Shown one piece after another: positions 1 through 10,645 of a stretch of DNA of 64,000 bases. How positions within the stretch are numbered: the first letter of the stretch is position 1; each line of letters opens with the position of its first letter. This stretch comes from Macrostomum lignano (lineage: Eukaryota). Below the pieces are notes generated by a model. That model saw nothing but the letters and a program-made list of their open reading frames with translations. It did no database searches and had not been told where the DNA came from. The position numbers and the translations under genes were made by a program. Location of the stretch: contig NIVC01001915.1 in the NCBI GenBank assembly GCA_002269645.1, forward strand, positions 1 through 64,000, read 5' to 3'.

Positions 1-2996
1 AAAGAACTCAAATTATCAAAATTATTTTAACTACTATCTCATTAATGCGAAAAGAAGGGAATCAGGTTTGACAAAGGAGGCTTGGCAATCTCTCAGATCC
101 CAAAGCTAGAAGAAGTGTTTAATAACAAAATTAGAATCACAGTCTTTGAGTGGAGTGAAAAACTGAGAAAGTTCAACCGGTCAGATGTAGCAAAGACGTT
201 TTAGATCCTGAGGGAAAAGGCGGACTGAAGTGGATCTTCTAGTGATTGGTAATTTACTAGAGGAGGCTCACTATGTTTGGATTAAAGATCTTTCAAGACT
301 CATTCACAAGCAGTTGAATAATCATCACGAGGCTGTTGCCATCTGCCGCTTGTGCCTTAAGCATTACAGTGGACCTGAACGCTTTGAAAAACTAACAGAG
401 CATGAATTATCATGCGAGATCACCCGACAAACTGCTCTCTTCCTTCAGCTGAAGAGAAGTATCTCCGGTTTAAGAACTATCACAAGATGGAGAAGCTCCC
501 ATTTGTTGTATATGCTGATTTCGAATGCTCAATCGTGCCAGAAACTCAAAAACAAACTCAACTCAAAACAAACTCAAAAACAAACTCAAACTCAAAACAT
601 ATCCCAATTCAGTAGCATATGCCTTTATTAATACAAAAGGACTTGTTGAGTATAATTATTTCTTTGGAGACAGTGTGTGGAGCAGTTTATTGCCAGAATG
701 TTAGAGTTGCAAAAAGTGATTAGCACCCTTCAACCTGTTCCAATAATGATGTGAGGAGGATGAAAGCAATTTCCTATCAGCAACTCATTGCCACATCTGC
801 AGGAAACATTTAACTTGCACTATTTAAAAACCCCACCGTTAGGGACCACTGCCACTATACTGGGAAATTTAGAGGTGCAGCGCATAACACCTGTAATCTA
901 AAGCTAAAATCGAACATTCATGATCTAACGATATTTTGTCACAACGCAAAGAACTATGACATGCATTTAATAGTTGAAAAAATCGGCATGATTCCAGACA
1001 TACACCTTGATTGCATCGCAGAGAACAAGGAGAAGTTTAAGTGTGTTGATATTAAACAGGATAATTCGGGTACAGGTAAAATAAGACTGAAGGATTCATA
1101 TCAATTTCTAGCTGCCAGTCTAGACGAACTAAGCAAGAATCTAAAAGATGAACAATGTACATATACAAAGATGTTTGCAAGTAAAATTAACAACACTGAT
1201 GAATCATTTAAACTCCTGAGAACAAAGGCTTCTACCCTATGAAAATATTACTGGGTATCACGTATTTGAAGAAGGTTTACCACCACAGGAGAAGTTCTTT
1301 TCAAAGCTAACAGACTCTGGAATCTCTGACAAAGACTATGAGCACGCGAAGCATGTCTATAATTACTTTAATTGTCAAAACTTCTTCCAGTATCACCTGC
1401 TTTACCTCTACACAGATGTGTTTCTGCTGGCCGATGTGTTTGAAACCTTCAGAGACACCTGGTACACAGCATATGGCCTCGATCCAGCACATTATGTGTC
1501 TCTGCCTGCCACTAGCTGGGAATCTTTGCTTAAAATGAAATGGGATCAAGATCCAGATTGGTACATTGAACTTCTTACAGACATTGACATGTACAATTTT
1601 GTCGAATCGTCAAAGCGAGGGGGAATCTCAATTTGCGTTAACAGGTATGCAAAAGCAAACAATCCCTACATTGAATCTTACAATAAGGAGCAGCCCTCAA
1701 ACTACATTACTTACTTGGACGCTAATAATCTCTACGGGTGGGCGATGAGTCAAGATCTTCCAGTTAGAGATTTTCGATGGCTACCCTCATCAGAATTCAA
1801 ATGGGACTTTTCATTGGCTGCCATTTATGAGGTTGATGTTTACATTCCACCAGAGCTTCACGACTATTTCTCTGACTTTCCACCCTTCCCAGAGAACATC
1901 AAGTGCCCGAAAATAATCGAAACTCCCAATGATAATAATGGAACTTGGCACCTGTCAGGAACAGAAAAAGAACATACAGAGAAACTAACACAGAATCTAA
2001 ACAACAAGACACGTTACAAAATCCATTACAAACTGCTTCAGTATTTTATCTCACTTGGTTGCAGGTCACCAAAGTTCACAGGGCTCTTACATTTACAGAG
2101 GAAGCGTGGATGAAACCCTACATTGATAAGAACACCCAGTTTAGGACCAAAGCAACCAACGACTTTGACAAGAACCTCTTTAAGTTGGCCAACAACTCTG
2201 TCTATGGCAAGACTCTTGAGAATGAGCGGAAAAGAACAAACCTGAAACTTGTTACCTCATCAGAGCCTGATGTTATTCAGGCAAATATGTCAAAGCCAAC
2301 ATTCAAAGAACTCCATATCTTTAATAGCTACTTAGGTGTGATCATATTTTACAAAACCAAGGTGACGCTGCGCAAGCCGATCTATACAGGTGTCACTGTT
2401 CTCGACGAATCAAAACGTCTGATGTACCAATTCTTCTATGGCATGAAGCAGCAGTACAAGGATAAAATGAAACTCTTGTACACTGACACAGACAGTTTTA
2501 TTATGGACATTCAAACAGAAGACATTTATCAGGACATGCTGCAGCAAAAAGAGTTGTTTGACTTGTCTGAGTATGACGAATCTTGCAGGACACAGAATGG
2601 TGATCAAGTGTTTGACGCCACTAACAAGAAAGTGATTGGGAAAATGAAGGACGAGATTGCTGGTGACATAATCACTGAATTCATTGGGTTGAGAGCAAAG
2701 TCCTATTTTATAAAATGTGAGTCGTCAGACCCAATAAAAAATCAAAGGGAATTCCGAAACGTGTGGTTAGGAAGGAAATTAATGAAGCTGAATACAGAGA
2801 CGCCTTGAATTGCAACAAAAAGACATCACATGAGTTCTCAAAGCTACAATCTAAAAACCATATTATTCACACAATTCAGCAAAAGAAGATTGGACTGTCA
2901 GGTGCAGATAACAAGAGATTCATTTTTGATGACAATATTAACAGTCTACCGTTCGGGCACTGGAGGTTAGGTTTAGGAGGTGGATATTGGGTTTAG
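1..2996 (+). CDS. polB: Protein-primed family B DNA polymerase (pPolB), 5'-partial, split by multiple 1-bp frameshifts in this assembly
   Basis: Motifs in order across frames: HYVWIKDLSRL; ExoI YADFE; VRDHCHYTGKFRGAAHNTCNL; ExoII CHNAKNYD; DSYQFLAASL; ExoIII TDVFLLADVFE; Pol A YLDANNLYGWAMS; Pol B KLANNSVYGK; Pol C LYTDTDS; KMKDE; GLRAKSY. Confidence 0.93.
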
Positions 2997-3028
2997 GTTT
3001 GAGAGAAAGTTTAATAAACCTCAAAAAA

Positions 3029-3429
3029 ATGACGACAAATAACTTTCTTGAAGATTTGGCTAACGAACTGGAAATCCCAAACTTTAGAGGAATATTTATG
3101 AGGGACACTCTGCCTGATTTTCCTCTAAGAAAAGAATGCGGCATCATGAACTTTGACACCACCGATAAGCCAGGATCTCATTGGGTTTGCTGGGTGATTG
3201 ATCCCAATCGCAAGCACAAGTGTTATTACTTCGATAGCTATGGGACGGCAGTACCAGAAGAGCTAAGAAATTATATGAAGGGAAAAATAATAAAAAAATT
3301 TATCGCTCAGACTTTATCCTCCAAGGTCTTAGCAGTGATATTTGCGGTGAGCTGTGCATGACTGTTTTGTATGCAATGACCAAAACACGAAAGACCTACA
3401 AGGAAATTATTCTTGGCTGTGTTTCATAG
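3029..3429 (+). CDS. Adenain-like (adenovirus-type) cysteine protease; one frameshift in an A-run at ~3290
   Basis: GSHWVC (His) and YFDSYG (Asp). Adding one A to the A-run restores ...YRSDFILQGLSSDICGELC (oxyanion Gln and catalytic Cys), with stop at 3427-3429. Confidence 0.88.
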
Positions 3430-3433
3430 GGGT

Positions 3434-4093
3434 TCATTGTGGTGTATTTCTCGTTGTCCTTCTCGTTGTCCTTCTTTCCACATAATGTTGAAGAACTTTC
3501 TCGAGTTCATTTCTCAGCTGACTCATGTCATCAGTACCGACCATGTTCAAGTTCATTCGAATTGATTGTTCATAAAGATCCTGAATGGTTTTGAACTCAT
3601 CCTCTGAAATGAACTTATCATCGATTGCCCTTGAAATGTACCCTATGATTGAAGTGTGCACCCCTTTCTCTTTTACTTGCTTCTCCTGTAGCTGCTTTAG
3701 TTTTTTTCGCCTGTTTCGCGCTACTGCTCCAGTAATTGCTGAAATAAGTCCACATGCAGCACCCACAGAGCCGAGTGGGATTGCGATTGGGGCTGTGATG
3801 ACTGGCAACGTTGAGACAGCTGCAGCAGATCCAGATAGAACAGACACAGATCCTAGAATCATATTGCTGTAGTCGAAAAATTTACAGTGGTTGTCATAGC
3901 GCTTAATTTTCTTTGTGTTGTGGAAAATATTTTTTTCAAGATCATCGCGCATTTTTTGAATCTCCACTAGTCGAAACTGTTGAGAGTTACAAGAAATGAC
4001 AGGGTAGAGTTTTTGTTGCTCATATTGGGGTGCACTAGGTGCACTAGGTGTTGTGGGAGCGTTCGGATCATAAAGAGAATTTTGAGCATCCAT
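3434..4093 (-). CDS. Predicted membrane protein resembling the adintovirus 'GasderminX'-type family (assignment from memory, not searched)
   Basis: Open ORF with AAAAAA-ATG start at 4093. Pattern FRLVEI... two hydrophobic segments (MILGSVSVLSGSAAAV; IAIPLGSVGAACGLISAITGAVA), basic RNRRKKLK, then SRAIDDKFISEDEF. Confidence 0.6.
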   Translation of the reverse strand: MDAQNSLYDPNAPTTPSAPSAPQYEQQKLYPVISCNSQQFRLVEIQKMRDDLEKNIFHNTKKIKRYDNHCKFFDYSNMILGSVSVLSGSAAAVSTLPVITAPIAIPLGSVGAACGLISAITGAVARNRRKKLKQLQEKQVKEKGVHTSIIGYISRAIDDKFISEDEFKTIQDLYEQSIRMNLNMVGTDDMSQLRNELEKVLQHYVERRTTRRTTRNTPQ

Positions 4094-4202
4094 TTTTTTG
4101 GGAATTTTTTTAAAAAAAATCGGCAACTAGTTGGTGGTGGTTAGATTTGTTTTACGGTTGATTGCTTCGTCTGCAGTGACGGCAACAGGTCTCTGAATCT
4201 GC

Positions 4203-9861: not shown

Positions 9862-9865
9862 GAAA

Positions 9866-10105
9866 TCACAATTGCTTAATGATTTCTGCAAAGTTATAAT
9901 AGCTGTCGTAATCTTTTACATATGTTACTCCGTACTTATGAAACCAGTGTCTTTGGAGAGCTAGGTTAATATTAGGGACATTGATATCAACGTCGGGCCA
10001 ATATTTTCTCATGTATTCGCTGCATTCAAGTTTGCATTGGTACTTGGATTTGTACAATGGATTAGGCTGAGTATAATAAGAACCTGGAGAGACAACTGGA
10101 AACAT
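9866..10105 (-). CDS. 79-aa Tyr-rich orphan ORF
   Basis: ATG in the same A-rich context as the other element ORFs; stop lies 4 bp from the penton stop (convergent, tightly packed). Confidence 0.5.
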   Translation of the reverse strand: MFPVVSPGSYYTQPNPLYKSKYQCKLECSEYMRKYWPDVDINVPNINLALQRHWFHKYGVTYVKDYDSYYNFAEIIKQL

Positions 10106-10307
10106 TTTATTGAGAATTTATTATTTTTTTTCAAAGGGTAAGGACCCTGCGCTGATAATTTAAAGTCTTAGGGATCTGGTAGCACGTTGCAAATTGAATG
10201 TGGGCCCCATGGGGAGAAGAATTCAGATTATTTTCTTATTGTTTCGAAGATGTTAGTGGATTATGTCAGTGTCAGTGAACATAACAGGTGTTAGTGGACA
10301 CCTGCTC

Positions 10308-10602
10308 TGATTCTGTCAGGGATAATATGGATGGATTTAATACGATTATGTTCGAAGTTTTCGGAGCAAGTGCGACCCCTCCACTTTTTCATGATTCTGT
10401 CGGGGATAATATGGATGGATTTAATGGGATTATGGAGGACGTTTTGTGAGCGAGTGCGACCCCCCTTTTTTTCTGATTCTGTCAGGGATAATATGGATGG
10501 ATTTAGGTGGATTATGGAGGATGTTTTGTGAGCAGGTGCGACCCCCCTTTTTTTCTGATTCTGTCAGGGATAATATGGATGGATTTAGGTGGATTATGGA
10601 GG
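10308..10602. repeat. Subterminal 82-84 bp tandem repeats (~3.6 units), probably part of the terminal inverted repeat
   Basis: TGATTCTGTC(A/G)GGGATAATATGGATGGATTT recurs at 10308, 10392, 10474 and 10556. Confidence 0.85.
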
Positions 10603-10645
10603 AGGTGAAAAATTTTGTCCCAGAAGCCCCCTCATGCCCTCTACT

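Follow-up and report, generated by a model that had tools for sequence, protein, structure and literature searches.

An open capsid gene beside replication and packaging genes frame-broken as assembled in the right-hand part of a Macrostomum lignano Polinton

Is the Polinton found at one edge of a sequenced stretch of the Macrostomum lignano genome a young, possibly intact provirus able to reactivate, or a copy with broken genes, be it in the genome or in the assembly? To address this question, we analyzed the first 64,000 nucleotides (nt) of contig NIVC01001915.1 (assembly GCA_002269645.1), hereafter the window, in which a preliminary description had recognized an endogenous adintovirus/Polinton with a full virion module. 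By its gene content, the interval from position 1 to position 10645 is the right-hand ~10.6 kb of a Polinton, or Maverick, encoding a protein-primed DNA polymerase B of the pPolB1 (Alpha) type [Table 1]. This identity was confirmed by the recovery of pPolB, a protease, a packaging ATPase and a double-jelly-roll capsid protein, and the open reading frames (ORFs) of the element lie, on the ORF list, where they had originally been placed. From left to right, they consist of pPolB and an adenain-type protease on the plus strand, ORF219, ORF247, the ATPase, ORF129 and ORF404 on the minus strand, the major capsid protein (MCP) and a 287-amino-acid (aa) ORF on the plus strand, and ORF79 on the minus strand. 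The genes are as tightly packed as had been described, with intergenic gaps of 4 to 271 nt as calculated from their coordinates. No gap within 1-10645 is roomy enough for an integrase gene, and no family match to a retroviral-type (rve) integrase was found in the 14 element ORFs or ORF pieces scanned, the left part of the element lying beyond the window.

The element further differs from the rest of the window in its GC content (40% versus 50%) and in its share of tandem repeats (8% versus 37% in the host part). At least four A residues are present within the six bases preceding the ATG at 9 out of 9 ORF starts, all of which fall within 3029-10105, compared to 41 of the 410 ATGs in the element. 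This common context supports these ORFs as real genes, and possibly represents a promoter or an initiation signal. Exact look-up of 11 window proteins in the protein collection returned zero records. Assignment of the element to the Polinton-like viruses (PLVs) was considered and dropped, as a typical Polinton pPolB is present whereas PLVs mostly lack pPolB (PMC11071308).

The MCP provided the best-resolved part of the element. Its proposed double-jelly-roll fold held upon structure prediction with AlphaFold2, which yielded from a 97-sequence alignment a model with a predicted local distance difference test score (pLDDT) of 93.2 and a predicted template modelling (TM) score of 0.90. A Foldseek search with this model retrieved the Sputnik MCP as the best match (3j26; E 3.5e-19, TM 0.63), structural comparison ranked the PBCV-1 capsid protein first (8h2i; Z 25.0, root-mean-square deviation 4.4 over 363 residues), and iridovirus and mavirus capsid proteins were also matched. 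The double-jelly-roll fold is common to the MCP and to the Sputnik (3j26), mavirus (6g44) and PBCV-1 (8h2i) proteins, but with just 8-11% identity to the MCP these virophage and nucleocytovirus capsid proteins share its fold and not its membership; single-sequence and profile searches of PDB sequences with the MCP returned nothing meaningful. A profile search yielded 536 matches at E<=0.001 among 1.84 billion representatives. Nine close relatives were found among 4067 candidates (P0001-P0009, 43-78% identity), all of them on contigs of 0.9-3.7 kb, and relatedness falls into tiers of 70-78%, then 43-44%, then about 25% identity. Scanning genome contigs of bacteria and archaea twice revealed no relatives of the MCP or of the 287-aa ORF.

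Both capsid frames, of 428 and 287 aa, are uninterrupted as had been reported. In alignments covering its full length, the MCP showed 0 breaks and 0 stops against 8 out of 8 homologs tested, and its private changes at conserved columns were not in excess (19 out of 254, compared to 12-24 in four relatives). The claim of a full virion module stands as far as the MCP, the protease and the ATPase are concerned, whereas the penton identity of the 287-aa ORF was not confirmed. From its size and its position beside the MCP, this ORF probably encodes a penton or minor capsid protein. It yielded no Pfam, PHROG or NCBIfam match and no meaningful PDB sequence match, and its single-sequence fold model was unusable (pLDDT 36). 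Its ESM Atlas neighbours (score 0.98) are viral hypothetical proteins in clusters that are 93-100% viral. Within the top cluster, 12% of the members carry DUF5901, a domain on which no literature was found.

The state of pPolB is very different. Its N-terminus is lost, the window opening some 290-350 residues into homologs of 1200-1300 aa, and its longest stop-to-stop piece measures 297 aa. The piece at 1220-2110 matches PF03175 with an E value of 6e-6, at the cut-off of this family, and 6472 homologs were retrieved at E<=0.001, the best 120 of which are 39-48% identical to the window sequence. Of the frameshift-aware alignments to 20 natural homologs out of the 120 listed, 19 required 7-11 frame breaks without any in-frame stop, and the remaining one required 5 frame breaks plus one stop. 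Breaks near 1200-1250, 2050-2100 and 2700-2750 recurred in all 20, and others were found at several places within 1-1250. In a PolB tree retaining 48 out of 121 rows after removal of redundancy, and built with no Beta-class references, the window piece sits on a long branch, its best relative being 50% identical, and the tree therefore gives no placement. An N-terminal OTU domain was not recorded in pPolB, of which the window begins inside the homologs' N-terminal region, and no search aimed at OTU was made. A 28-nt AAACTC-rich duplication is present inside pPolB at 542-599.

The protease and the ATPase are each interrupted by one frame break. The N-terminal piece of the protease matches Peptidase_C48 (E 9e-4) and Peptidase_C5 (E 2.5e-3), each narrowly missing its curated cut-off, and the adenovirus proteinase 1AVP with an E value of 0.028. 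Three-frame reading places its break between what we take to be the His/Asp part and the Cys motif. In the ATPase, the N-terminal piece matches Pox_A32 short of the cut-off (E 1.6e-3), the C-terminal piece gave no family match and chance matches only in a PDB search, and the break sits between the motifs that we presume to be Walker A and Walker B. The nine 21-nt repeats found upstream of the ATPase may also be read on the minus strand as 7-residue repeats in an open frame of 93 aa (5722-6003) that overlaps the start of the ATPase. With three frame-broken genes, one of which is cut at the window edge, the copy as assembled can no longer be described as possibly intact. Its ability to reactivate is likewise unsupported as assembled, given that three out of the five core genes seen are broken and that neither integrase nor left end is present in the window. 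As assembled, the copy would be incapable of replicating or packaging itself.

Polintons are not new to this worm. Jeong et al. reported in 2023 a total of 748 integrase-linked pPolB1 genes in 8 out of 73 flatworm genomes, all 748 Platyhelminthes entries being pPolB1, and their Supplementary Table 3, which is restricted to pPolB ORFs of at least 900 aa with a linked integrase, lists 78 and 175 entries in two M. lignano assemblies (PMC10748475). For GCA_002269645.1, 45 of the 70 rows examined, out of 78, passed the terminal inverted repeat (TIR) filter of that study (PMC10748475). The M. lignano entries resemble the present copy in host species, in pPolB1 class and in a gene set that joins to pPolB a protease, an ATPase, an MCP and a probable minor capsid protein; they differ from it in possessing a linked integrase and an uninterrupted pPolB frame of 900 aa or more, neither of which this copy displays as assembled. 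M. lignano Polintons are thus already catalogued, and many are better preserved than the one studied here. Insertions of Orthopolintovirales have also been reported in Rhabditophora in a bioRxiv preprint. The suggestion that the host lineage is poorly described therefore holds only in part: no dedicated account of M. lignano Polintons was found in the literature searched, most subscription papers being outside reach, and the word Macrostomum was not found in the portion of the supplement of Starrett et al. that was examined (PMC8502044), yet these elements were tabulated in 2023 (PMC10748475).

Whether the breaks arose in the genome or in its assembly was next considered. On balance, we think it probable that most of them are assembly errors on a young copy, because they are stop-free frameshifts that crowd towards position 1 of an element whose MCP is undecayed. 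The first 1250 nt hold approximately 8 out of 12 breaks (binomial p 0.0015, with a boundary picked post hoc and the 8 being an estimate from bins), and the probability that the MCP and the 287-aa ORF would both be unbroken at the pPolB break rate is 0.0008. Under neutral decay, some 12 indels would be expected to come with 2.4 or 4.7 stops at assumed ratios of 5 or 10 substitutions per indel, in which case the probability of finding zero stops is 0.09 or 0.009. The young age proposed in the preliminary description is plausible in view of the absence of excess private changes in the MCP and of any need for a nonsense codon in pPolB.

Several points weigh against assembly error. At 2 substitutions per indel, zero stops have an unremarkable probability of 0.39. 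Frame changes favor one direction only modestly, with typically 5-7 out of 8-10 in an alignment, and breaks within the first 1250 nt were counted from alignments of 22-54% identity, total breaks ranging from 5 to 11. A host gene located 2.8 kb away shows no break over about 1.7 kb, so that the assembly cannot be poor throughout. The proximity of position 1 to a contig end is a presumption, albeit a probable one, made from the assembled sequence. The comparison of breaks with homologs covered pPolB and the MCP, the ends of the 287-aa ORF and the five accessory ORFs falling outside it. As for the left part of the element, an integrase lies at most 1.2 kb upstream of pPolB in 10 of the 70 GCA_002269645.1 rows examined (our own count from PMC10748475), making an integrase to the left of pPolB plausible by analogy in this copy, but these ten rows represent M. 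lignano pPolB1 genes in general, unassigned to family. Two copies of a host LINE segment, which differ by one substitution and one single-base indel in 2377 nt, provided a control too small to decide the matter.

It is possible, although we consider it doubtful, that the element is a truly dead Polinton in which real mutations have disabled the polymerase, the protease and the ATPase, with the capsid genes still open either fortuitously or owing to the recency of the decay. Such a history would accommodate the spread of some 12 breaks over three genes next to an error-free host gene, would agree with the two frame changes that likewise affect the host LINE in the window interior, and would be in keeping with vertebrate Mavericks, most of which are degraded (PMC8097293). 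It does not sit well with the 19 pPolB alignments out of 20 that require no nonsense codon, nor with the steepness of the gradient of breaks towards position 1 and their absence from the MCP, a protein conserved to the same degree as its relatives.

The reading that we favor also has the element integrated in host DNA, on which its right end bears. Polintons are bounded by TIRs and a 5-8-bp target-site duplication and span 13-25 kb in total; one end of this element lies in the window. The non-coding right arm contains 3.6 copies of an 82-nt repeat at 10306-10603. Read inward from 10645, the minus strand begins with the hexamer AGTAGA, which is similar to, but not identical with, the (AGT)2 and (AG)3 ends of vertebrate Mavericks (PMC8097293). 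Position 10645 is likely to be the right end of the element, and not certain to be so because five bases of the hexamer also resemble the edge of the unit of the adjoining minisatellite; repeat searches revealed no second copy of this end in the window. The minisatellite is probably host DNA at the insertion site. Further to the right, the exons of a calpain-domain gene are 99-100% identical to residues 1-568 of the M. lignano protein BOX15_Mlig025568g3, with no frame break in any of them, which establishes M. lignano as the host.

That the element is instead a free or foreign Polinton-like sequence misassembled onto host DNA at the minisatellite appears very unlikely to us. The junction does coincide exactly with a tandem array, but arrays occupy 37% of the host sequence in the window, so that a junction at one of them is expected. 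The GC content unlike that of the host part, the closest MCP relatives (70-78%) residing on short contigs with none named M. lignano, and the contaminant-derived adintoviruses described by Starrett et al. (PMC8502044) would all fit a foreign origin; against this, the candidate end displays a putative AG-type motif, and many Polintons populate the two M. lignano assemblies, most of the rows examined having passed the TIR filter (PMC10748475). Least credible of all is the retention of the capsid module by host selection, in a domesticated or helper role, during the decay of the replication and packaging genes: the breaks detected are all in pPolB, the protease and the ATPase with zero in the MCP, but gene type is confounded with position because the broken genes also lie closest to position 1, the five accessory ORFs are open as well, the close MCP relatives show differences at 22-28% of sites, as in a diverse viral family, and no locus orthologous to this one is known.

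Among the closest described elements are the Alpha-PolB adintoviruses, which share with this copy a PF03175-type PolB, an adenain, an FtsK ATPase and a hexon-like gene (PMC8502044). The only adintovirus-named match to pPolB among the best 120 is that of Corynactis coral adintovirus (39% identity, E 1.5e-71), a member of the Alpha-PolB panel of Starrett et al. (PMC8502044). With regard to PLA2X, a gene of the Alpha-class virion module, no phospholipase A2 (PLA2) match was found in the five accessory ORFs, the left part of the element being beyond the window, and the 9 closest and 10 more distant MCP relatives carry no informative protein names. The Beta class of adintoviruses was ruled out on the basis of the PF03175 match and of the 39% identity to an Alpha-panel PolB, Beta PolBs being less than 30% identical to the PF03175 type; GasderminX and Cupiennin are accessory genes of the Beta-class virion module (PMC8502044). 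Vertebrate Mavericks are termed intact when their core ORFs are unbroken and they retain both TIRs together with a 6-bp target duplication (PMC8097293). The present copy has in common with them compact intronless core genes and, putatively, an AG-type end motif, and differs from them in its core ORFs, broken as assembled, and in its gene arrangement (PMC8097293).

The coordinates of the element and of the adjoining host features are collected in Table 1. The product of ORF219 is possibly membrane-active, given its hydrophobic segment; its match to SLATT_1 is weak (E 0.02, far short of the cut-off), and its ESM neighbours (score 0.94) are viral and mollusc hypothetical proteins, which we regard as a lead only. 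Library scans with ORF247 gave weak sub-cut-off matches only. Searches of Pfam, PHROG and NCBIfam yielded no family match for ORF129 and ORF79 and no convincing one for ORF404. ORF129 is a candidate for a protease-cleaved core protein. ORF404 carries one G-x-G motif near its C-terminal domain, and the G-x-G motifs of both proteins presumably resemble adenain cleavage sites.

Table 1 Predicted features of the Polinton and of the adjoining host DNA, with positions in the window
Feature	Position	Strand	Basis
Protein-primed DNA polymerase B (pPolB1/Alpha type), cut at window edge, frame-broken	1..2996	+	PF03175, homologs
Adenain/Ulp1-type maturation protease, one frame break	3029..3429	+	Weak family matches; three-frame reading
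ORF219, accessory protein, hydrophobic two-helix segment	3434..4093	-	Open frame
ORF247, coiled-coil-like accessory protein, 84-nt internal duplication	4203..4946	-	ORF and repeat scan
FtsK/A32-type packaging ATPase, one frame break	4963..5762	-	Pox_A32; motifs read directly
Nine copies of 21-nt repeat in 271-nt gap upstream of ATPase	5803..5991		Repeat scan
ORF129, small protein, three G-x-G motifs	6034..6423	-	Open frame
ORF404, Gln/Pro-rich accessory protein	6441..7655	-	Open frame
MCP (428 aa), major capsid protein of double-jelly-roll fold	7686..8972	+	PF21738 (E 5e-5); fold model
287-aa ORF, probable penton/minor capsid protein	8998..9861	+	Open frame; position and size
ORF79, small Tyr-rich accessory ORF	9866..10105	-	Open frame; A-rich start context
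Non-coding right arm, candidate terminal inverted repeat	10106..10645		Repeat scan
47/48-nt minisatellite, 7.1 copies, abutting candidate end	10646..10987		Repeat scan
Calpain-domain host gene, four exons, outside element	13421..18619	+	Match to BOX15_Mlig025568g3

The host part of the window harbors a LINE retrotransposon (endonuclease, reverse transcriptase, RNase H) at 33363-41150, which contains a head-to-tail 2377-nt duplication (33670-36046 and 36045-38420, 99.9% identical) that may be real or an assembly artefact; an in-frame stop interrupts the first ORF of the LINE at the matching place in both copies. The LINE is bracketed by an 872-nt direct repeat (32001-32872 and 41499-42370, 98% identical) containing a TCTA microsatellite and a 25-nt array. 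Two hydrophobic ORFs on the minus strand, at 11165-11596 and 12066-12407, gave no Pfam match and no exact record and are possibly membrane-protein exons. A degenerate TTAGGG-like array at 59632-59920 is possibly an interstitial telomere-type repeat.

Taken together, we lean towards the view that the locus is an integrated Polinton provirus of recent origin, one of many dozens in M. lignano, whose breaks are mostly errors. The gene set, the capsid fold, the host flank and the breaks were observed directly, and the remainder of the proposed mechanism draws on family knowledge or on what this copy suggests. In this family, a linear genome is replicated by protein-primed synthesis from inverted-repeat ends, with a terminal protein released from pPolB through its vOTU domain; a retroviral-type integrase inserts the element, leaving a short target duplication, and spread is proposed to occur in icosahedral particles built of double-jelly-roll and penton proteins, which the ATPase would fill and the protease mature (PMC11071308; PMC8502044). 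The order of domains in the Polinton polymerase is terminal protein-vOTU-exonuclease-palm (PMC11071308). In the present copy, the integrase and left arm would lie beyond position 1, insertion would have been recent, and most frame breaks would be errors of base calling or of the consensus in a thinly covered region, which probably lies close to a contig end.

What is added here is an annotated capsid module, from a clade in which the searches made found no member with a name, together with a worked example of frameshifts that could be noise of the assembly. Truncated and with broken frames as assembled, this copy is a weaker candidate than the catalogued ones, and the value of the system lies more with the M. 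lignano Polinton population, already tabulated, than with this copy. A bolder proposal, which we hold to be unlikely, is that the breaks are assembly errors and that the copy derives from a currently active, particle-forming M. lignano polintovirus family with its own capsid clade. If true, M. lignano could be the first animal in which Polinton particles are seen, since this worm is kept in laboratory culture and dozens of its long-ORF copies have been catalogued. Maverick particles were unobserved as of Barreat and Katzourakis 2021 (PMC8097293), and a tractable animal host with young, complete copies would therefore be useful.

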